Shown in pieces: positions 14,264 to 25,410 of a stretch of 64,000 nt of DNA. The DNA lies in the NCBI RefSeq assembly GCF_041248615.1, contig NZ_CP158426.1; one strand, written 5' to 3'. Position 1 is the first letter of the stretch, and each line of letters starts with the position of its first letter. The translations under genes were made by a program, and so were the position numbers. The notes under the pieces are model-generated. The model was not told the origin of the DNA, made no database searches, and was given only the letters and a program-made list of their open reading frames with translations. Origin of the DNA: Escherichia coli (GTDB taxonomy: Bacteria; Pseudomonadota; Gammaproteobacteria; Enterobacterales; Enterobacteriaceae).

Positions 14264-15271
<1,008 letters not shown>

Positions 15272-15600
15272 CTATTTGTTAGTGAATAAAAGGTTGCCTG
15301 TAAAATTACAAAAACCTTACGCAGCGTCAAGCGGAATCGTGTCAATCATTGCGACAAATCAATCCTGTGCCTAAGCATTACGCGACTGACTCGCCTCACT
15401 CTTCCTTTGGGCTTGAGACCACATGGGGTCGGCGTCCCGAATTTTAAAGGGCAATTACGATAAAAATGTGATTTTCATCACGATTTAGGTGCAGCCATTT
15501 CGTCGAGATCAAGTTTAGGACAAATTTTTGCCAGTTGGTGTTAATGTTTTGTTAGAATCAGTCACGTAATGTGAGCACGATTAAAGTGAGATGTGAGCAA

Positions 15601-16014
15601 ATGGCTAATAAACCTTCGGCAGAAGAACTGAAAAAAAATTTGTCCGAGATGCAGTTCTACGTGACGCAGAATCATGGGACAGAGCCGCCATTTACGGGTC
15701 GTTTACTGCATAACAAGCGTGACGGCGTATATCACTGTTTGATCTGCGATGCCCCGCTGTTTCATTCCCAAACCAAGTATGATTCCGGCTGTGGCTGGCC
15801 CAGTTTCTACGAACCGGTGAGTGAAGAATCCATTCGTTATATCAAAGACTTGTCACATGGAATGCAGCGCATAGAAATTCGTTGCGGTAACTGTGATGCC
15901 CATCTGGGGCATGTCTTCCCCGACGGGCCGCAGCCAACGGGTGAACGTTATTGTGTTAACTCAGCCTCTTTACGCTTTACCGATGGCGAAAACGGCGAAG
16001 AAATCAACGGTTGA
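15601..16014 (+). CDS. msrB: Peptide methionine sulfoxide reductase MsrB
   Basis: ORF 15571..16014; start at [10 protein letters not shown] giving 137 aa; CxxC zinc motifs present. Confidence 0.9.
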
Positions 16015-16055
16015 AAAAACGATTCAGCAACTTATTCCACAGGAGCGGAAAAATT

Positions 16056-16328
16056 ATGAATCTTGATGACATTATCAACAGCATGACGCTTGAGGTATAC
16101 CAGCGTTTGTCGACCGCCGTTGAATTGGGCAAATGGCCTGATGGCGTTGCGTTGACCGAGGAACAAAAAGAGAACTGCCTGCAACTGGTGATGCTGTGGC
16201 AAGCCCGCAATAATACCGAAGCACAGCATATGACAATTGACACAAATGGTCAGATGGTCATGAAGAGCAAACAACAGTTAAAAGAAGATTTTGGTATCTC
16301 AGCAAAGGCTATTGCCATGTTTAAGTAA
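16056..16328 (+). CDS. yeaC: DUF1315 protein YeaC
   Basis: ORF 16011..16328; start at MNLDDIINSMT giving 90 aa; synteny. Confidence 0.85.
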   Translation: MNLDDIINSMTLEVYQRLSTAVELGKWPDGVALTEEQKENCLQLVMLWQARNNTEAQHMTIDTNGQMVMKSKQQLKEDFGISAKAIAMFK

Positions 16329-16567
16329 GTGGTTTGTCCCCTTTTTGCCGCGGTTATAAAGGGGATAGCCAACAATAACCCCACGACTCATCTCAATTAT
16401 CTCGTCACGACCAGGCTAAGTCCCAGCCCGGTCTCTTGCAGTCGCGTTCACGCCTGAATGACTTCTCCTGAACTTAAGTCTCAGACCTATTTGGCCGGTA
16501 ATCCCTCTCAAATTTGCTCATTTTGCGTTCCGCCTTCCATCAACCTGTAACAGATCCAGCCATTTTC

Positions 16568-16619
16568 TGCGTAATTGTGATCTGAGTTGTAAAACGCAGA
16601 TCATTATCTGTGTTTTACA
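16568..16619. promoter_or_regulatory. Nested inverted repeats in the ydjL upstream region (candidate operator)
   Basis: TGTAAAAC ... GTTTTACA and CTGCGT ... ACGCAG inverted repeats about 80 bp upstream of ydjL start. Confidence 0.3.
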
Positions 16620-16697
16620 GATTTAATGTTGACCTCAAAAATCATGTGGGTAAGTATGATGACCATCTAAGCAAAACAAAACACAGAGGATGACGCA

Positions 16698-17774
16698 ATG
16701 AAAGCACTGGCTCGGTTTGGCAAAGCCTTTGGCGGCTACAAGATGATCGATGTCCCACAACCCATTTGTGGCCCGGAAGATGTAGTGATTGAAATTAAAG
16801 CCGCGGCAATCTGCGGCGCAGACATGAAGCACTACAATGTCGATAGCGGTTCTGATGAGTTTAACTCTATCCGCGGCCATGAGTTCGCAGGTTGTATTGC
16901 GCAGGTTGGTGAAAAAGTCAAAGACTGGAAAGTGGGGCAACGCGTCGTGTCGGATAACAGCGGTCACGTCTGCGGCGTTTGTCCGGCCTGTGAACAAGGT
17001 GATTTTCTGTGTTGTACAGAAAAAGTAAACCTTGGTCTGGATAACAATACCTGGGGCGGTGGTTTTTCCAAATATTGTCTGGTTCCTGGTGAAATTCTCA
17101 AAATTCATCGTCATGCATTGTGGGAAATCCCTGATGGTGTTGATTATGAGGACGCAGCCATACTTGACCCTATCTGTAATGCCTATAAATCCATCGCGCA
17201 GCAATCGAAATTCCTCCCTGGTCAGGATGTGGTCGTCATCGGCACTGGCCCACTCGGGCTGTTCTCCGTACAAATGGCGCGGATTATGGGGGCGGTAAAT
17301 ATCGTCGTCGTTGGTCTACAAGAAGATGTGGCGGTCCGCTTCCCGGTTGCAAAAGAACTGGGTGCGACGGCAGTAGTAAATGGTTCTACCGAAGATGTGG
17401 TGGCGCGCTGCCAGCAAATTTGTGGCAAAGACAATCTGGGACTGGTGATTGAATGCTCCGGTGCCAATATCGCACTGAAACAAGCCATCGAAATGCTCCG
17501 TCCGAACGGGGAAGTGGTACGCGTTGGAATGGGCTTCAAACCTCTTGATTTCTCGATTAATGACATTACCGCCTGGAACAAAAGCATCATTGGGCATATG
17601 GCCTATGACTCCACCTCATGGCGTAACGCTCTCCGGCTATTAGCCAGCGGCGCTATCAAAGTCAAACCGATGATCACGCATCGTATCGGCCTGTCGCAAT
17701 GGCGCGAAGGGTTTGATGCGATGGTCGATAAAACCGCAATCAAAGTGATCATGACTTACGACTTTGATGAATAA
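16698..17774 (+). CDS. ydjL: Zinc-dependent sugar-alcohol dehydrogenase YdjL
   Basis: 358-aa MDR-family ORF with Zn ligands and GxGxxG; first gene of the ydjLKJIHG cluster. Confidence 0.9.
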   Translation: MKALARFGKAFGGYKMIDVPQPICGPEDVVIEIKAAAICGADMKHYNVDSGSDEFNSIRGHEFAGCIAQVGEKVKDWKVGQRVVSDNSGHVCGVCPACEQGDFLCCTEKVNLGLDNNTWGGGFSKYCLVPGEILKIHRHALWEIPDGVDYEDAAILDPICNAYKSIAQQSKFLPGQDVVVIGTGPLGLFSVQMARIMGAVNIVVVGLQEDVAVRFPVAKELGATAVVNGSTEDVVARCQQICGKDNLGLVIECSGANIALKQAIEMLRPNGEVVRVGMGFKPLDFSINDITAWNKSIIGHMAYDSTSWRNALRLLASGAIKVKPMITHRIGLSQWREGFDAMVDKTAIKVIMTYDFDE

Positions 17775-17800
17775 CTACTCTCCTGAAGGAACGTTATCGC

Positions 17801-19180
17801 ATGGAACAGATAACAAAACCGCATTGTGGTGCACGGCTGGATCGCTTACCGGATTGCCGCTGGCATTCGTCAATGTTTGCCATCGTCTCGTTTGGCTTGC
17901 TTGTCTGCTGGAGTAATGCCGTTGGTGGCTTGATCCTCGCGCAGCTGAAAGAGTTGGGCTGGACAGATAATTCCACCACTGCCACATTCTCAGCAATCAC
18001 GACCGCCGGAATGTTTCTCGGTGCGCTGGTTGGCGGCATCATCGGTGACAAAACCGGTCGCAGAAATGCGTTCATCCTCTATGAGGCCATTCATATTGCC
18101 TCGATGGTGGTCGGTGCTTTTTCACCGAATATGGATTTCCTTATTGCCTGCCGTTTTGTGATGGGCGTTGGGCTGGGAGCTTTACTGGTGACGCTGTTTG
18201 CTGGTTTCACCGAATATATGCCCGGTAGAAATCGCGGAACGTGGTCCAGTCGGGTTTCTTTTATTGGCAACTGGTCATATCCGCTCTGTTCATTGATTGC
18301 GATGGGACTCACGCCGCTGATTAGTGCAGAGTGGAACTGGCGAGTACAACTGCTTATCCCTGCAATATTGTCGCTTATCGCTACGGCGCTGGCCTGGCGC
18401 TACTTTCCTGAATCCCCGCGCTGGCTGGAATCGCGCGGACGGTATCAGGAAGCCGAGAAAGTCATGCGGAGTATAGAAGAAGGCGTCATACGCCAGACGG
18501 GAAAACCTTTGCCGCCCGTGGTTATTGCTGATGACGGTAAAGCGCCACAAGCGGTGCCGTATTCAGCCTTAATGACAGGAGTATTACTGAAACGCGTGAT
18601 ATTAGGCTCTTGTGTGCTGATTGCCATGAACGTTGTGCAGTACACACTAATTAACTGGTTGCCAACAATATTCATGACCCAGGGGATTAATTTAAAAGAC
18701 TCGATTGTTTTAAATACCATGAGTATGTTTGGCGCGCCATTTGGTATTTTTATTGCTATGCTGGTGATGGATAAAATTCCGCGTAAAACAATGGGTGTGG
18801 GGCTATTAATCCTGATTGCGGTGCTCGGATATATCTATTCACTGCAAACCAGTATGTTGCTCATAACGTTGATTGGTTTCTTCCTGATTACTTTCGTCTA
18901 TATGTACGTTTGCTATGCCTCGGCAGTGTATGTCCCTGAGATCTGGCCGACAGAGGCCAAATTACGTGGCTCCGGTCTGGCGAATGCAGTAGGGCGAATC
19001 AGTGGTATTGCCGCACCTTATGCCGTTGCAGTGCTGCTCAGTAGTTATGGCGTAACGGGAGTCTTTATTCTTCTGGGGGCGGTTTCAATTATTGTCGCAA
19101 TTGCTATCGCCACCATTGGAATTGAAACCAAAGGTGTCTCCGTTGAAAGTTTAAGTATTGATGCAGTAGTCAATAAATAA
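17801..19180 (+). CDS. ydjK: MFS sugar transporter YdjK
   Basis: 459-aa 12-TM-type ORF; synteny. Confidence 0.9.
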   Translation: MEQITKPHCGARLDRLPDCRWHSSMFAIVSFGLLVCWSNAVGGLILAQLKELGWTDNSTTATFSAITTAGMFLGALVGGIIGDKTGRRNAFILYEAIHIASMVVGAFSPNMDFLIACRFVMGVGLGALLVTLFAGFTEYMPGRNRGTWSSRVSFIGNWSYPLCSLIAMGLTPLISAEWNWRVQLLIPAILSLIATALAWRYFPESPRWLESRGRYQEAEKVMRSIEEGVIRQTGKPLPPVVIADDGKAPQAVPYSALMTGVLLKRVILGSCVLIAMNVVQYTLINWLPTIFMTQGINLKDSIVLNTMSMFGAPFGIFIAMLVMDKIPRKTMGVGLLILIAVLGYIYSLQTSMLLITLIGFFLITFVYMYVCYASAVYVPEIWPTEAKLRGSGLANAVGRISGIAAPYAVAVLLSSYGVTGVFILLGAVSIIVAIAIATIGIETKGVSVESLSIDAVVNK

Positions 19181-19196
19181 TACTGGTGGATTCAAA

Positions 19197-20240
19197 ATGA
19201 AAAATTCAAAAGCAATATTGCAGGTGCCGGGCACAATGAAAATTATTTCAGCAGAAATACCTGTGCCTAAAGAAGATGAAGTTTTGATTAAAGTGGAATA
19301 TGTCGGTATTTGTGGTTCAGATGTACATGGTTTTGAATCAGGCCCGTTTATTCCGCCTAAAGACCCAAATCAAGAAATTGGCTTGGGTCATGAATGCGCC
19401 GGGACGGTTGTGGCTGTGGGAAGCCGTGTGCGCAAATTTAAAGCGGGGGATCGGGTAAATATCGAACCTGGCGTTCCTTGCGGTCACTGTCGTTACTGTC
19501 TGGAAGGCAAATATAACATCTGCCCGGACGTTGATTTTATGGCGACACAACCTAACTACCGCGGCGCATTAACGCACTATCTGTGTCATCCGGAGAGCTT
19601 TACTTACAAACTGCCCGACAATATGGACATGATGGAAGGGGCGCTGGTGGAGCCTGCTGCAGTCGGGATGCATGCCGCGATGCTGGCAGATGTTAAACCG
19701 GGTAAGAAGATAATTATTCTGGGAGCGGGTTGTATTGGTTTGATGACGTTGCAAGCGTGCAAATGCCTGGGAGCTACGGATATTGCCGTCGTTGATGTAC
19801 TGGATAAACGTCTGACAATGGCGGAACAGCTCGGCGCGACAGTGGTTATTAACGGTGCAAAAGAAGACACTATTGCACGCTGTCAGCAATTTACCGAAGA
19901 AATGGGCGCAGATATTGTTTTCGAAACAGCGGGTTCTGCGGTCACCGTTAAACAGGCACCTTATCTGGTAATGCGCGGCGGTAAAATTATGATTGTTGGT
20001 ACTGTACCGGGCGATTCGGCAATCAATTTCCTCAAAATCAATCGCGAAGTCACTATTCAGACAGTATTCCGCTATGCCAATCGTTATCCGGTCACGATTG
20101 AAGCTATTTCCTCAGGGCGATTCGATGTGAAATCGATGGTGACACATATTTACGATTATCAGGATGTACAACAGGCATTTGAAGAGTCGGTTAACAACAA
20201 ACGCGACATTATTAAAGGCGTTATTAAAATTAGCGATTAA
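19197..20240 (+). CDS. ydjJ: Zinc-dependent dehydrogenase YdjJ
   Basis: 347-aa MDR-family ORF (GHECAG, GxGxxG); synteny. Confidence 0.9.
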   Translation: MKNSKAILQVPGTMKIISAEIPVPKEDEVLIKVEYVGICGSDVHGFESGPFIPPKDPNQEIGLGHECAGTVVAVGSRVRKFKAGDRVNIEPGVPCGHCRYCLEGKYNICPDVDFMATQPNYRGALTHYLCHPESFTYKLPDNMDMMEGALVEPAAVGMHAAMLADVKPGKKIIILGAGCIGLMTLQACKCLGATDIAVVDVLDKRLTMAEQLGATVVINGAKEDTIARCQQFTEEMGADIVFETAGSAVTVKQAPYLVMRGGKIMIVGTVPGDSAINFLKINREVTIQTVFRYANRYPVTIEAISSGRFDVKSMVTHIYDYQDVQQAFEESVNNKRDIIKGVIKISD

Positions 20241-20260
20241 TTAATACGGGAGAACAGAAT

Positions 20261-21097
20261 ATGCTCGCAGATATCAGATATTGGGAAAACGATGCCACAA
20301 ATAAACATTATGCAATTGCCCATTTTAACGTATGGAATGCAGAAATGTTGATGGGCGTTATCGACGCAGCCGAAGAAGCGAAATCACCGGTTATTATTTC
20401 TTTTGGTACAGGTTTTGTCGGGAACACCTCATTTGAAGATTTCTCTCACATGATGGTATCAATGGCAAAAAAAGCAACGGTGCCGGTAATAACTCATTGG
20501 GATCATGGTCGGAGTATGGAAATTATTCATAACGCCTGGACTCATGGTATGAATTCATTAATGCGTGATGCTTCCGCATTTGATTTCGAAGAAAATATTC
20601 GTTTAACCAAAGAGGCTGTTGATTTCTTCCATCCGCTGGGTATTCCGGTAGAGGCAGAATTAGGGCATGTCGGTAATGAAACCGTTTATGAAGAAGCGCT
20701 GGCGGGCTATCACTATACCGATCCTGACCAGGCGGCTGAATTTGTTGAACGTACGGGCTGTGACTCATTGGCTGTCGCCATCGGCAACCAACATGGGGTT
20801 TATACGTCAGAGCCACAATTGAATTTTGAGGTCGTCAAACGCGTACGCGATGCCGTTTCTGTTCCGCTGGTTTTGCACGGCGCATCGGGGATCAGTGATA
20901 CCGACATTAAAACTGCAATTTCGTTGGGTATCGCGAAAATCAACATTCATACGGAGCTCTGTCAGGCCGCAATGGTAGCAGTGAAAGAAAACCAGGATCA
21001 GCCTTTCCTGCATTTAGAACGTGAAGTACGTAAAGCTGTAAAAGAACGGGCATTGGAAAAAATTAAACTGTTCGGTTCTGATGGCAAAGCGGAATAA
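20261..21097 (+). CDS. ydjI: Class II aldolase YdjI
   Basis: 278-aa ORF resembling tagatose/fructose-bisphosphate aldolase class II; synteny. Confidence 0.9.
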   Translation: MLADIRYWENDATNKHYAIAHFNVWNAEMLMGVIDAAEEAKSPVIISFGTGFVGNTSFEDFSHMMVSMAKKATVPVITHWDHGRSMEIIHNAWTHGMNSLMRDASAFDFEENIRLTKEAVDFFHPLGIPVEAELGHVGNETVYEEALAGYHYTDPDQAAEFVERTGCDSLAVAIGNQHGVYTSEPQLNFEVVKRVRDAVSVPLVLHGASGISDTDIKTAISLGIAKINIHTELCQAAMVAVKENQDQPFLHLEREVRKAVKERALEKIKLFGSDGKAE

Positions 21098-21101
21098 TGA
21101 T

Positions 21102-22049
21102 ATGGATAATCTCGACGTTATTTGTATAGGTGCCGCTATTGTTGATATTCCATTGCAACCGGTCAGTAAAAATATCTTTGATGTGGATTCTTATCCTCTT
21201 GAAAGAATCGCAATGACCACCGGGGGTGATGCAATAAATGAAGCAACAATTATTTCTCGTCTGGGCCATCGCACAGCATTAATGAGTCGTATTGGTAAAG
21301 ATGCCGCCGGGCAATTTATTCTCGACCATTGCCGCAAAGAGAATATTGATATTCAAAGCCTGAAGCAGGACGTCAGCATAGATACCTCAATTAACGTTGG
21401 ACTGGTGACGGAGGATGGCGAGCGGACGTTTGTCACAAACTGTAACGGCAGTCTGTGGAAATTGAATATTGACGATGTTGATTTTTCGCGGTTTTCTCAG
21501 GCGAAATTATTATCTCTGGCCAGTATTTTCAACAGTCCTCTATTGGATGGTAAAGCGCTAACAGAAATTTTTACGCAAGCTAAAGCCCGGCAGATGATTA
21601 TCTGTGCCGATATGATCAAACCGCGGTTGAATGAAACGCTGGATGATATTTGCGAAGCATTGAGTTATGTCGATTATCTGTTTCCTAATTATGCCGAGGC
21701 AAAATTACTCACCGGGAAAGAGACACTGGATGAAATTGCTGACTGCTTTCTTGCGTGCGGCGTAAAAACGGTGGTGATTAAAACGGGTAAAGACGGCTGC
21801 TTTATCAAGCGTGGTGACATGACGATGAAGGTGCCGGCGGTCGCAGGAATAACCGCCATCGACACCATTGGCGCGGGCGATAACTTTGCTTCAGGTTTTA
21901 TTGCGGCACTGTTAGAAGGCAAAAATCTGCGTGAATGCGCACGCTTTGCCAATGCAACGGCGGCTATCTCGGTTCTAAGCGTCGGTGCCTCCACCGGCGT
22001 AAAAAACAGAAAGCTGGTCGAACAATTGCTGGAAGAATACGAAGGATAA
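21102..22049 (+). CDS. ydjH: PfkB-family sugar kinase YdjH
   Basis: ORF 21081..22049; start at MDNLDVICIGAAIVD giving 315 aa; GAGD motif near C-terminus. Confidence 0.85.
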   Translation: MDNLDVICIGAAIVDIPLQPVSKNIFDVDSYPLERIAMTTGGDAINEATIISRLGHRTALMSRIGKDAAGQFILDHCRKENIDIQSLKQDVSIDTSINVGLVTEDGERTFVTNCNGSLWKLNIDDVDFSRFSQAKLLSLASIFNSPLLDGKALTEIFTQAKARQMIICADMIKPRLNETLDDICEALSYVDYLFPNYAEAKLLTGKETLDEIADCFLACGVKTVVIKTGKDGCFIKRGDMTMKVPAVAGITAIDTIGAGDNFASGFIAALLEGKNLRECARFANATAAISVLSVGASTGVKNRKLVEQLLEEYEG

Positions 22050-22058
22050 TGAAGGCAA

Positions 22059-23039
22059 ATGAAAAAGATACCTTTAGGCACAACGGATATTACGCTTTCG
22101 CGAATGGGGTTGGGGACATGGGCCATTGGCGGCGGTCCTGCATGGAATGGCGATCTCGATCGACAAATATGTATTGATACGATTCTTGAAGCCCATCGTT
22201 GCGGCATTAACCTGATTGATACTGCGCCAGGATATAACTTTGGCAATAGTGAAGTTATCGTCGGTCAGGCGTTAAAAAAACTGCCCCGTGAACAGGTTGT
22301 AGTAGAAACCAAATGCGGCATTGTCTGGGAACGAAAAGGGAGTTTATTCAACAAAGTTGGCGATCGGCAGTTGTATAAAAACCTTTCCCCGGAATCTATC
22401 CGCAAAGAGGTAGAAGCCAGCTTGCAACGTCTGGGTATTGATTACATCGATATCTACATGACGCACTGGCAGTCGGTGCCGCCATTTTTTACGCCGATCG
22501 CTGAAACTGTCGCAGTGCTCAATGAGTTAAAGGACGAAGGGAAAATTCGCGCTATAGGCGCTGCTAACGTCGATGCTGACCATATCCGCGAGTATCTGCA
22601 ATATGGTGAACTGGATATTATTCAGGCGAAATACAGTATCCTCGACCGGGCAATGGAAAGCGAACTGCTGCCGCTATGTCGTGATAATGGCATTGTGGTA
22701 CAGGTTTATTCGCCGTTAGAGCAGGGATTGTTGACCGGTACCATCACTCGTGATTACGTTCCGGGCGGCGCTCGGGCAAATAAAGTCTGGTTCCAGCGTG
22801 AAAACATGCTGAAAGTGATTGATATGCTTGAACAGTGGCAGCCACTCTGTGCTCGTTATCAGTGCACAATTCCCACTCTGGCACTGGCGTGGATATTAAA
22901 ACAGAGTGATTTAATCTCCATTCTTAGTGGGGCTACTGCACCGGAACAGGTACGCGAAAATGTCGCGGCATTGAATATCAACTTATCGGATGCAGACGCA
23001 ACATTGATGAGGGAAATGGCAGAGGCCCTGGAGCGTTAA
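22059..23039 (+). CDS. ydjG: Aldo-keto reductase YdjG
   Basis: 326-aa AKR-family ORF; synteny. Confidence 0.9.
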   Translation: MKKIPLGTTDITLSRMGLGTWAIGGGPAWNGDLDRQICIDTILEAHRCGINLIDTAPGYNFGNSEVIVGQALKKLPREQVVVETKCGIVWERKGSLFNKVGDRQLYKNLSPESIRKEVEASLQRLGIDYIDIYMTHWQSVPPFFTPIAETVAVLNELKDEGKIRAIGAANVDADHIREYLQYGELDIIQAKYSILDRAMESELLPLCRDNGIVVQVYSPLEQGLLTGTITRDYVPGGARANKVWFQRENMLKVIDMLEQWQPLCARYQCTIPTLALAWILKQSDLISILSGATAPEQVRENVAALNINLSDADATLMREMAEALER

Positions 23040-23175
23040 ATACTCAACACGATTCACCTCTGTTTCTGTGAAAACTGTGATGAAAATCTGTGATTCAAAC
23101 AGGTTATTTTGAAAGTAAACATCGGTTATGCGATAATCGCGCTAATGTGATGTAAAAAGATACAGGGGTGTAATC

Positions 23176-23934
23176 GTGGCGGCAAAAGACAGGATTCAGG
23201 CAATTAAGCAAATGGTTGCCAACGATAAAAAGGTGACAGTCTCAAATTTGAGTGGGATTTTTCAGGTAACCGAAGAAACCATTCGCCGCGATCTCGAGAA
23301 GCTGGAAGATGAAGGCTTTTTGACCAGAACCTATGGTGGTGCTGTTTTAAATACAGCGATGTTGACGGAGAATATCCATTTTTATAAGCGCGCTTCATCG
23401 TTTTATGAAGAGAAGCAGCTTATTGCACGCAAGGCACTACCCTTTATCGACAATAAAACCACTATGGCAGCCGATTCCAGTAGTACCGTTATGGAATTGC
23501 TCAAATTGTTGCAGGACCGTAGTGACCTGACGTTGCTAACTAACTCGGCGGAAGCGATTCATGTTCTGGCTCAATCAGAAATTAAAGTCGTTTCAACGGG
23601 GGGGGAACTAAACAAAAATACACTTTCCCTGCAAGGAAGAATTACTAAAGAGATCATCAGCCGCTACCATGTCGATATCATGGTAATGAGTTGTAAAGGT
23701 CTTGATATTAACAGCGGCGCGCTGGACTCTAACGAAGCGGAAGCTGAAATCAAAAAGACAATGATCCGTCAGGCGACAGAGGTTGCGTTATTGGTTGATC
23801 ACTCTAAGTTTGATCGCAAAGCTTTTGTCCAGTTAGCTGACTTTAGTCATATTAATTACATAATAACTGATAAATCACCGGGTGCAGAGTGGATAGCATT
23901 TTGCAAAGACAATAATATCCAGCTGGTGTGGTAA
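23176..23934 (+). CDS. ydjF: DeoR-family transcriptional regulator YdjF
   Basis: 252-aa ORF with N-terminal HTH and DeoR C-terminal sugar-binding-like domain; synteny. Confidence 0.9.
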   Translation: MAAKDRIQAIKQMVANDKKVTVSNLSGIFQVTEETIRRDLEKLEDEGFLTRTYGGAVLNTAMLTENIHFYKRASSFYEEKQLIARKALPFIDNKTTMAADSSSTVMELLKLLQDRSDLTLLTNSAEAIHVLAQSEIKVVSTGGELNKNTLSLQGRITKEIISRYHVDIMVMSCKGLDINSGALDSNEAEAEIKKTMIRQATEVALLVDHSKFDRKAFVQLADFSHINYIITDKSPGAEWIAFCKDNNIQLVW

Positions 23935-24051
23935 TTTAAGCACACGTTGTCAATATTATTTGTTCCTGCGCCTGGAAAATAAAATGATGATAAAGATGCG
24001 GCAAGTGAATTTGCCGCAATTGCTACCTTTTTAGCAAATCCGAGGCACCTA

Positions 24052-25410
24052 ATGGAACAATATGATCAAATTGGCGCAAGACTGGACCGCTTGCCTTTGG
24101 CCCGGTTTCATTATCGTATATTTGGTATTATAAGCTTTAGTCTGTTATTAACGGGTTTTTTGAGTTATTCAGGCAATGTTGTTTTAGCAAAGCTGGTAAG
24201 CAATGGATGGTCAAATAATTTCCTCAATGCCGCCTTTACCTCGGCATTAATGTTTGGTTATTTCATCGGCTCTCTTACCGGTGGGTTCATCGGTGATTAT
24301 TTTGGGCGGCGCAGGGCTTTTCGCATAAATCTTCTCATCGTCGGTATTGCGGCAACAGGGGCCGCTTTTGTCCCTGATATGTACTGGCTCATCTTCTTTC
24401 GCTTCCTGATGGGCACAGGAATGGGGGCGCTGATTATGGTTGGCTATGCTTCGTTTACGGAGTTTATCCCCGCGACGGTGCGTGGAAAATGGTCCGCGCG
24501 GCTCTCATTTGTCGGTAACTGGTCGCCCATGTTGTCTGCGGCGATAGGCGTGGTGGTTATCGCTTTTTTTAGTTGGCGGATAATGTTTCTGCTGGGTGGT
24601 ATTGTCATACTGTTAGCCTGGTTTCTCTCAGGTAAATACTTTATTGAGTCGCCTCGATGGTTGGCGGGGAAAGGACAAATCGCAGGTGCAGAAAGCCAAC
24701 TTCGTGAAGTAGAGCAGCAAATTGAAAGAGAGAAGAGTGTTCGTTTACCCCCGCTTACTTTGAATCAGAGCAACAACAAGGCTAACGTAATCAATGGTAC
24801 TTTCTGGCTGCTGTTTAAAGGGGAAATGTTACGACGTACATTAGTCGCGATTACTGTTTTAATTGCAATGAACATTTCACTTTATACCATCACCGTATGG
24901 ATACCGACCATATTTGTTAACTCCGGCATTGATGTCGATAAATCAATATTAATGACTGCTGTTATTATGATTGGCGCTCCGGTAGGAATATTTATTGCGG
25001 CATTAATTATTGATCATTTTCCTCGTCGATTATTTGGTTCCGCCTTGCTTATTATTATTGCCGTGTTAGGCTATATCTATTCAATTCAGACTACAGAGTG
25101 GGCGATTTTAATCTATGGCCTGGTGATGATCTTCTTTTTATACATGTATGTTTGCTTCGCGTCGGCGGTTTATATCCCGGAACTTTGGCCAACGCATTTA
25201 CGCCTGCGTGGTTCGGGTTTCGTTAATGCCGTCGGACGGATCGTCGCGGTCTTCACGCCTTATGGCGTTGCGGCACTATTAACGCATTATGGGTCGATCA
25301 CGGTGTTTATGGTACTTGGTGTCATGTTATTGCTCTGTGCGCTGGTTCTCTCCATTTTTGGCATCGAAACGCGGAAGGTGTCGTTGGAAGATATTTCTGA
25401 GGTGAATTAA
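24052..25410 (+). CDS. ydjE: MFS transporter YdjE
   Basis: 452-aa ORF paralogous to YdjK; synteny. Confidence 0.9.
   Translation: MEQYDQIGARLDRLPLARFHYRIFGIISFSLLLTGFLSYSGNVVLAKLVSNGWSNNFLNAAFTSALMFGYFIGSLTGGFIGDYFGRRRAFRINLLIVGIAATGAAFVPDMYWLIFFRFLMGTGMGALIMVGYASFTEFIPATVRGKWSARLSFVGNWSPMLSAAIGVVVIAFFSWRIMFLLGGIVILLAWFLSGKYFIESPRWLAGKGQIAGAESQLREVEQQIEREKSVRLPPLTLNQSNNKANVINGTFWLLFKGEMLRRTLVAITVLIAMNISLYTITVWIPTIFVNSGIDVDKSILMTAVIMIGAPVGIFIAALIIDHFPRRLFGSALLIIIAVLGYIYSIQTTEWAILIYGLVMIFFLYMYVCFASAVYIPELWPTHLRLRGSGFVNAVGRIVAVFTPYGVAALLTHYGSITVFMVLGVMLLLCALVLSIFGIETRKVSLEDISEVN

Follow-up and report, generated by a model that had tools for sequence, protein, structure and literature searches.

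In a 64,000-nucleotide stretch of Escherichia coli DNA (contig NZ_CP158426.1; hereafter the window), overlapping inverted repeats lie at 16567-16619, shortly before ydjL (16698-17774, plus strand), the lead gene of the ydjLKJIHG cluster. These palindromes reflect, for the most part, copies of a motif that in distant bacteria accompanies orthologues of YdjF, the DeoR/GlpR-family regulator whose gene (23176-23934, plus strand) ends the cluster, and they are very probably its binding sites. With good confidence, we read them as the footprint of a phased array of such sites, with binding predicted from comparative sequence analysis. The functional unit is most likely a dyad of ~17 bp, AATCTGTG-N3-CACAGATT, with a predicted minimal core of TCTGT-N5-ACAGA. 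An initial annotation of this DNA had proposed two nested palindromes, TGTAAAAC...GTTTTACA and CTGCGT...ACGCAG, as a candidate YdjF operator. The proposal of an operator now has comparative support in a motif shared across phyla, in a top-ranking match that holds GTTTTACA, and in a copy of the motif before ydjF. The anatomy is different from that described, being a ~17-bp dyad ATCTGT-N5-ACAGAT plus a weaker upstream unit rather than a pair of palindromes, although the GTTTTACA arm does fall in the main unit.

A promoter motif shared with ydj clusters of other phyla

A scan based on YdjL returned 58 loci. The complete ydjL-K-J-I-H-G-F cluster is found in Escherichia, Citrobacter, Klebsiella, Raoultella, Yokenella, Budvicia, Symbiopectobacterium, and Enterobacillus and, in the same order, outside the Proteobacteria in Lachnospiraceae, Eubacteriaceae, Anaerococcus, Atopobiaceae, and Megamonas; in Enterococcus alishanensis the locus is rearranged to ydjK-ydjL-ydjI, with ydjF ~8 kb away. 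The non-proteobacterial orthologues share 76-84% identity for YdjL and 41-56% for YdjF, and the YdjL identity together with the common gene order points to transfer between phyla. The ydjF gene is the terminal member of the ydj cluster in all taxa examined, and a YdjF orthologue was the sole regulator detected with the cluster by the 11 E. coli queries used, other open reading frames (ORFs) of the loci being left unannotated.

At such protein divergence neutral DNA should be randomised, yet a recurrent unit similar to AATCT(G/T)TGAAACACAGAAAAA persists in the non-proteobacterial ydjL promoters, and its phased 20-21-bp copies resemble AATCTGTGAAACACAGA. Unbiased Gibbs sampling of these upstream regions returned T[GT][TC]GAAA[CT]A..., and an iterated scan placed the units on the same strand at a spacing of 20-21 bp, the last of them holding the -35 hexamer. 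From 15 of these sites we derived a matrix of 17 columns that contains no proteobacterial sequence; a first iteration at a loose threshold had drifted toward A-rich sequence, and the 15 high-scoring sites and 17 columns were used instead.

The matrix was run over the window (127,968 positions) and the fetched loci. Its best match in the window is 16607-16623 on the minus strand (AATCTGTAAAACACAGA, 23.3 bits). The second, at 23085-23101 in the ydjG-ydjF spacer (AATCTGTGATTCAAACA), scores 16.5 bits, and the third only 12.8 bits; in 200 null windows the top score averaged 15.5 bits, with a maximum of 21.7 bits. The ydjL site, 81-85 bp before the gene, is the top match in 21 of the 24 Enterobacterales loci scanned, and the ydjF site, 83-86 bp before its gene, is the second or third match in 16 of the 22 that include ydjF. 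The motif precedes ydjF by 59-70 bp in Enterococcus and Atopobiaceae. In a Lachnospiraceae genome with ABC-transporter genes ahead of ydjL, it sits at the true operon promoter, 5 kb upstream, and in Enterococcus, TCTGTGTTTTAA-N10-TTGACA precedes the ydjK-ydjL operon, with TCTGTG and TTGAC 22 bp apart as in E. coli. In the window, the 21 loci, Enterococcus, and Lachnospiraceae, a repeated or dyad motif in the operon promoter thus accompanies the regulator, as expected of a DeoR/GlpR-family protein with a cognate operator.

Two Firmicutes loci that do not have ydjK carry two tandem motif copies, 20-21 bp apart, 107-190 nt downstream of ydjF (L024, 14802-14838; L036, 14895-14932). These copies probably mark another promoter of the YdjF regulon, possibly that of a transporter. 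The conserved recognition helix of YdjF, VTEETIRRDL, was considered as further evidence and set aside, as it does not discriminate; TIRRDL is a signature of the whole family.

Architecture of the ydjL promoter

The main predicted operator, unit B (16606-16622), is the dyad ATCTGT-GTTTT-ACAGAT, which reads AATCTGTAAAACACAGA on the minus strand and contains the GTTTTACA arm. Its centre, at 16614, is 15 bp from the first base of the -35 hexamer TTGACC (16629-16634), which is followed after 17 bp by a predicted -10 hexamer, AAGTAT (16652-16657, plus strand). A competing promoter preferred by a consensus scan, TTTACA-17-AAAAAT (16614-16642), was rejected because it is not conserved, whereas TTGACC-17-AAGTAT is conserved in 25 of 25 sequences.

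Three weaker units accompany unit B. Unit A (16584-16602, plus strand, GAGTTGTAAAACGCAGATC), the putative second operator unit, contains TGTAAAAC and ACGCAG, its centre preceding that of unit B by 21 bp. At this position Serratia (AATCTGCGAAACAAATA) reaches 19.4 bits, and Citrobacter and Intestinirhabdus (AAGTTGTGAAATACAGA) reach 12-14 bits. Unit C (16564-16580, plus strand, TTTCTGCGTAATTGTGA), which may be a third and degenerate copy, encloses CTGCGT and has a TCTGCG half-site 20 bp upstream of that of unit A. It is kept within Escherichia species only and is degenerate or absent elsewhere, so that its assignment as an operator unit is weak. Unit D (16625-16641, plus strand, AATGTTGACCTCAAAAA) is operator-like and encloses the -35 hexamer, and a comparable 'AATG(N)TTGA' unit follows the strong unit by 20-21 bp in Firmicutes and Atopobiaceae promoters as well. 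Overall, hexamers of the TCTG(Y)G type start at 16566, 16586 (degenerate), 16607, and 16628 (TGTTGA), at spacings of 20, 21, and 21 bp.

This architecture accounts for the palindromes as they were first described. All four words named in the initial annotation are present (TGTAAAAC, 16588-16595; GTTTTACA, 16612-16619; CTGCGT, 16567-16572, one base before the start of 16568 given there; ACGCAG, 16594-16599), but they are interleaved rather than nested, with ACGCAG overlapping the 3' end of TGTAAAAC. The words TGTAAAAC and GTTTTACA form the outer portion of a longer inverted repeat (16588-16619, both strands) with 14-nt arms, TGTAAAACGCAGAT (16588-16601) and ATCTGTGTTTTACA (16606-16619), that are complementary at 13 of 14 positions around a 4-nt loop. 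This repeat is the only one of its class in the window. By first-order Markov (dinucleotide-frequency) randomisations, 0.125 such repeats are expected per window, and 0.05% of random sequences the size of the spacer contain one. It is the opposed placement of units A and B that gives rise to the long palindrome. The CTGCGT/ACGCAG pair extends to 7 nt (TCTGCGT/ACGCAGA) and is chance-sized, and it does not stand out from the 24 inverted pairs, 6 nt or longer, in this 381-nt stretch. Further short repeats, TGATCTGAGTT/AACGCAGATCA and ATCTGT/ACAGAT, overlap the region; the former was rejected as an element of its own because its left arm lies within 16582-16585, which varies even among E. coli. 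The apparent nested palindromes are thus several copies of one half-site in alternating orientation: CTGCGT belongs to the degenerate unit found only in Escherichia, ACGCAG is the right half of unit A, TGTAAAAC marks the centre of unit A, and GTTTTACA marks that of unit B. Nor is this a REP or other dispersed extragenic palindrome, which would be present in many copies, as each of 4,327 E. coli genomes has the 98-bp block just once.

Conservation in the Enterobacterales

Conservation and base pairing were assessed in a 25-sequence Enterobacterales alignment, the genera compared upstream of ydjL being Escherichia, Citrobacter, the Klebsiella oxytoca group, Raoultella, Yokenella, Intestinirhabdus, Budvicia, Symbiopectobacterium, Enterobacillus, and Serratia. 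Upstream of ~16570 the DNA is unrelated among genera, and from there to the ATG runs a conserved block that holds units A and B and the -35 and -10 hexamers. Invariant or nearly invariant within it are TGTGA (16576-16580), TTGTG/AAA...CAGAT of unit A, ATCTGTGTTTTA(A/C)AGAT of unit B, TTGAC (16629-16633), and AA.TAT (16652-16657). The TTGA of the -35 hexamer is invariant across the alignment, as are, or nearly so, positions 2, 5, and 6 of the -10 hexamer. Across 4,327 E. coli genomes the 98-bp block hardly varies, while a comparison of this strain with K-12 shows ~9% difference in the yeaC-proximal half of the spacer.

The 14 pairs of the potential helix are formed in 84.6% of cells compared with 84.9% for shuffled partners, with a single two-sided change. 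The G:C pair 16589/16618 is mismatched in 20 of 25 sequences, and three further pairs are of the G.T type in 15 of 25 each, so that perfect complementarity of TGTAAAAC and GTTTTACA is a feature of Escherichia. Symbiopectobacterium, Enterobacillus, and Serratia retain unit B and have lost its complementarity to unit A; in Serratia and Enterobacillus unit B is the perfect palindrome AATCTGTGTTTCACAGATT. The internal dyad of unit B is kept in 84% of cells, with one two-sided change (ATCTGT...ACAGAT to ATCTTT...AAAGAT). In Klebsiella and C. amalonaticus an extra unit of 12.8-13.4 bits lies over the -35/-10 spacer. The initial annotation had named a lack of conservation of its repeats in orthologous promoters as grounds for refutation. 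By that measure, the CTGCGT/ACGCAG half of the proposal fails, being unconserved outside Escherichia, paired in 53% of cells against 52% in shuffles, and no better than shuffled or slid controls.

Farther upstream, a block at 16521-16551, TTTTGCGTTCCGCCTTCCATCAA(C/T)CTGTAAC, is kept between E. coli and divergent Escherichia, although the sequence on either side has diverged, and other genera do not share it.

The ydjF promoter

The second match of the matrix, unit F2 (23085-23101, plus strand), lies ahead of ydjF, so that the motif stands upstream of the regulator gene too, as a sequence prediction. From the null windows, the chance of such a score inside the ydjG-ydjF spacer is estimated at ~7e-4. 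An upstream half-unit, F1 (23063-23079, plus strand, TTTCTGTGAAAACTGTG), has its TCTGTG 22 bp before that of F2, and CCTCTGTTTCTGTG is conserved there across the Enterobacterales. The ydjF promoter, TTGAAA-17-GATAAT (23109-23137, plus strand; -35 at 23109-23114, -10 at 23132-23137), consists of hexamers listed as a constitutive RpoD promoter of ydjF in a systematic evolution of ligands by exponential enrichment (SELEX) study of RNA polymerase (PMC3946193). The dyad centre of F2, 23094, is 15 bp from the first base of the -35 hexamer, the same distance as at ydjL, and in both E. coli promoters TCTGTG stands 22 bp before TTGAC (ydjL) or TTGAA (ydjF). Upstream of ydjF, TCTG(Y)G-type hexamers start at 23065, 23087, and 23107, at spacings of 22 and 20 bp. 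A motif ahead of ydjF at an equal distance to the -35 hexamer suggests autoregulation, and F2 is the predicted operator for it.

The RNA of the ydjG-ydjF spacer (23045-23190) folds with unusual stability, at -44.8 kcal/mol (z = -4.9). It includes a conserved long-range helix of 12 bp in which ACCUCUGUUUCU (23057-23068) pairs with GGAAACAGAGGUG (~23159-23170) and covers the ydjF Shine-Dalgarno sequence, and in the E. coli minimum free energy fold the pairing stretches over the GTG start codon. The helix could silence ydjF translation on read-through operon mRNA. It shows almost no covariation, and both of its arms hold TCTGT/ACAGA half-sites, which makes a role at the DNA level equally possible. 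In addition, the 5' region of ydjF contains a degenerate LexA-like site, CCCTGTATCTTTTTACATCA (opposite strand; 23148-23167 of the window), according to a published re-analysis of LexA chromatin immunoprecipitation data from microarrays (PMC3542263).

A neighbouring CRP-type site

A CRP-type site, AAT-TGTGA-TCTGAG-TTGTA-AAA (16573-16594), which the initial annotation does not mention, adjoins the predicted YdjF units. Its left half, TGTGA (16576-16580), is perfect and present in 25 of 25 Enterobacterales sequences with flanks, TTTGTGATCT, that fit a CRP left half; the N6 spacer varies even within E. coli, at 16582-16585. An electrophoretic mobility shift assay (EMSA) found that CRP shifts a ydjLKJIHG promoter fragment, a result reported as 'Crp activation', with expression consistent with activation (PMC8085971). 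A CRP SELEX study includes ydjF among its targets (PMC3105977).

These observations favour a reading in which the conserved block is a control region for CRP alone, the TGTG repeats being CRP half-sites and YdjF acting elsewhere or not at all. We consider this quite unlikely. The dyad spacing within a unit, TGTG-N3-CACA, is unsuited to CRP, whose TGTGA-N6-TCACA symmetry gives TGTG-N8-CACA, and the best candidate 22-mer matches the consensus at only 12 of 22 positions, with its right half, TTGTA, matching at 2 of 5. Moreover, the CRP-type element is absent from Firmicutes promoters, and promoters of Firmicutes and Atopobiaceae retain the AATCTGTG units while lacking the TGTGATCT element; the units track the YdjF orthologue and its own promoter. 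Most likely, CRP occupies the adjacent half-site in addition to YdjF, not in its place. If transcription begins near 16664, as predicted, the centre of the CRP-type site falls near -80, and the placement of the YdjF units between it and RNA polymerase fits a component of anti-activation.

Proposed mechanism and alternatives

In the mechanism that we propose, the strong unit B would be centred at ~-50, 15 bp upstream of the -35 hexamer, with unit A at ~-71 and the degenerate units at ~-91 and over the -35 hexamer, all two helical turns apart. In the absence of inducer, YdjF would bind cooperatively, as dimers or tetramers, along a single face of the helix from the strong unit toward the -35 region and, sitting between the TGTGA half-site of CRP and RNA polymerase, would block both initiation and activation by CRP. 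Release of YdjF would then come from a sugar-phosphate intermediate of the pathway, as is usual for DeoRC sensor domains. Candidate inducers include what the YdjH kinase phosphorylates and what the YdjI aldolase uses as substrate, reported by the Raushel laboratory to be higher-carbon 2-keto sugar acids. The sign of regulation and the nature of the inducer are both predictions, and we judge repression distinctly more probable than activation. The ydjL promoter is off in culture and on in the mouse gut (PMC6561318), as expected of an inducer-controlled promoter.

Several points weigh against this proposal. In E. coli, the matrix scores of units A, C, and D are low (4.2 bits, below 0, and 6.7 bits, respectively), the matrix sites were hand-picked from an iterative scan with some subjectivity, and the ydjL start near 16664 from TTGACC/AAGTAT is itself predicted. 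The main unit, upstream of the core promoter at ~-50, would suit an activator as well as a repressor. Because the motif contains TGTG, CRP binds in vitro, and the SELEX targets include ydjF, conservation within the Enterobacterales could in part serve CRP. Finally, no published YdjF operator, regulon, motif, binding data (EMSA, footprint, chromatin immunoprecipitation (ChIP), ChIP-exo, DNA affinity purification sequencing, or SELEX), or genetics was found in the searchable literature, RegPrecise and RegulonDB being outside its reach.

A variant of the proposal, in which YdjF binds the same units and activates, alone or with CRP, strikes us as rather doubtful. It draws on the placement of the predicted sites, at ~-50 and ~-71 ahead of a promoter whose -10 hexamer is poor, and on the existence of activators in the DeoR family, such as FucR. 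Most members of the family are repressors, however, and repression is favoured for this reason and because Firmicutes promoters with the same array are near consensus (for example TTGACT-17-TAAAAT and TTGAAA-17-TACAAT), which makes activation unneeded there, and because the motif also stands before the ydjF promoter, for whose recognition RNA polymerase needs no further factor (PMC3946193). Operator-like units, moreover, lie over the -35 hexamer and, in the case of Klebsiella and C. amalonaticus, over the promoter spacer too. Hardly credible, by comparison, is a reading that involves no specific protein at all, with the palindromes due to chance in an AT-rich spacer or to phased A-tracts that bend the DNA as an UP-like element. 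The units are indeed A/T-rich and ~21 bp apart, and short inverted repeats are plentiful in the stretch, but it is the specific TCTGTG/CACAGA cores, and not the A-tracts alone, that are conserved across phyla, the 23.3-bit score exceeds those of all 200 null windows, and few spacers of this length would contain so large a repeat by chance.

Finally, the 14-nt-arm repeat could act as RNA, forming a hairpin in msrB-yeaC read-through transcripts that insulates ydjL as an intrinsic terminator, attenuator, or stabiliser. A scan flagged it as terminator-like (15 pairs, 4-nt loop), its RNA folds at -17 to -18.8 kcal/mol (z = -2.96), and a transcript used as the 'ydjL 5' untranslated region (UTR)' begins at 16221, within yeaC, and would include it. 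We regard such a role as very unlikely. Only 4 of the 15 pairs are G-C and the tail, ATTTAATGTT, has no U-tract. In the 25 orthologues, pairing is at the level of the shuffled control and a single change is compensatory, and three genera retain unit B without the complementarity, as described above. No promoter is conserved upstream of the block, and in Term-seq data the 3' end of yeaC falls at ~16385, with none listed near the hairpin at 16588-16619. In LB, no 3' end of ydjL itself was detectable, and the premature termination reported for this gene depends on Rho and takes place within the ORF.

A larger scenario can be offered tentatively, as one that we find plausible and yet somewhat less than evenly likely. 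The whole module, consisting of YdjF, AATCTGTG units phased at 21 bp, and a -35 hexamer fixed 22 bp from TCTGTG, may have moved with the ydj island between Firmicutes/Actinobacteria and the Enterobacterales with its geometry kept. The Enterobacterales would then have added the upstream CRP half-site, so that an imported repressor now acts partly as an anti-activator. The ydjG-ydjF helix may hide the ydjF ribosome-binding site, in which case YdjF would be made only from its own autoregulated promoter.

RNA structures and transcripts around the spacer

Several RNA elements were tried and rejected. A Rho-independent terminator is not supported at the repeat, given the A/U-rich stem, the missing U-tract, and the lack of a Term-seq 3' end at the corresponding K-12 coordinates. 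A structured cis-regulatory RNA (riboswitch, leader, or attenuator) was rejected on the lack of an Rfam match, the pairing at shuffled level, and an unremarkable wider fold (16575-16712, z = -0.40). Rfam gave no match at the hairpin, and permissive thresholds on 15000-18000 returned only a chance snoRNA-like match (E = 0.6).

Unit B, as TCATTATCTGTGTTTT (16601-16616), is 88% complementary over 16 nt to the ydjL ribosome-binding region, AAAACACAGAGGATGA (16678-16693), as an inverted repeat. Pairing of the two as an anti-Shine-Dalgarno device has no support from folding, as the wider fold keeps the local hairpin instead. A half-site-like ACAGAGG likewise precedes ydjF. The arm at 16678-16693 may serve as an operator half-site on the downstream side, or it may coincide by chance with the Shine-Dalgarno sequence.

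Just past yeaC, a hairpin, TCCCCTTT...AAAGGGGA (16337-16365), has a conserved stem and a loop that has diverged in other Escherichia species. The primary Term-seq 3' end of yeaC maps ~20 nt beyond it, where there is no U-tract. In the published 'ydjL 5' UTR + ORF' fusion, which starts at 16221, Rho-dependent termination occurs at ~16852, ~155 nt into the ydjL ORF. This start, together with termination inside the ORF, indicates that in laboratory culture the transcripts that reach ydjL come from upstream and abort, and do not come from the TTGACC promoter.

The locus and its regulator

The window is E. coli chromosome, with 100% identity to strain CFSAN061763. In the orientation of the window, gapA (minus strand) is followed by msrB and yeaC (both plus strand, yeaC ending at 16328), a 369-bp spacer, ydjLKJIHG, ydjF, and ydjE. 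YdjF has an N-terminal DeoR-type helix-turn-helix domain (HTH_DeoR, PF08220, E 2.9e-17) and a C-terminal DeoRC sensor domain (PF00455, E 2.4e-49) in Pfam. Gene order and domains together confirm the context given in the initial annotation, that of a ydjLKJIHG promoter with a DeoR-type regulator encoded downstream. YdjF is catalogued as an uncharacterised transcription factor (PMC4797297). In the portions of the PPTP-seq supplements that are accessible, the ydjL and ydjF promoters are both in the library, and a YdjF knock-down line is not among the entries; the ydjF promoter is mildly up on deoR knock-down, and the ydjL promoter is up on fis knock-down.

The block of ydjLKJIHG, ydjF, and ydjE (window 16329-25410) is missing from ~1,100 of 5,425 complete E. 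coli genomes. In genomes without it, homology ends at the yeaC stop codon and pncA follows directly, which indicates that the ydj cluster is an accessory island inserted between yeaC and pncA.

Significance and comparison with known systems

The ydjLKJIHG genes encode a poorly understood sugar-acid pathway, and their promoter was among the most reliable gut-on/culture-off switches in a biosensor screen (PMC6561318). The predicted operator, with its defined geometry and its two candidate target promoters, opens YdjF regulation to direct experiment, and knowledge of the operator would aid engineering of the ydjL promoter as a gut sensor. Conservation of operator and promoter across phyla would also make a tidy example of a regulatory unit travelling with its gene cluster. 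The logic applied here is that of RegPrecise-style regulon inference, in which a regulator encoded in a cluster is linked to a palindromic motif found before the operon and the regulator gene across taxa.

Among characterised regulators, GlpR of the E. coli glp regulon shares with YdjF the HTH_DeoR plus DeoRC architecture. Its operators, like the ydj units, are imperfect dyads of ~20 bp that stand side by side at a spacing of two helical turns in the promoter of a catabolic operon, and the system likewise has CRP as co-regulator and a phosphorylated intermediate as inducer. The half-sites differ (AATCTGTG at ydj, TGTTCGAT-type for GlpR), and the strongest ydj unit lies upstream of the -35 hexamer, whereas that of GlpR lies over -10/+1; at ydj, binding of the regulator is predicted. 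DeoR at the deo operon also offers a 16-17-bp palindromic operator for a DeoR-type helix-turn-helix, several operators acting jointly, and CRP sites in the promoter. Its operators are widely separated, however, and bring about looping through an octamer, whereas the ydj units are contiguous and phased; looping at ydj is unsupported, although distant half-site-like sequences are present near the ydjL and ydjF ribosome-binding sites.

Anti-activation by CytR and CRP at deoP2 and cdd is similar in that the repressor site lies beside or between CRP sites, upstream of the core promoter, and repression at ydjL could likewise block CRP activation rather than occlude the -10 hexamer. CytR, by contrast, belongs to the LacI family, contacts CRP directly, and works with two CRP sites, whereas the ydjL promoter shows one CRP-type half-site. 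The predicted operator is an ordinary kind of switch, a DeoR-family operator array with a CRP site at a catabolic promoter, which is new for YdjF and not new as a type of mechanism.

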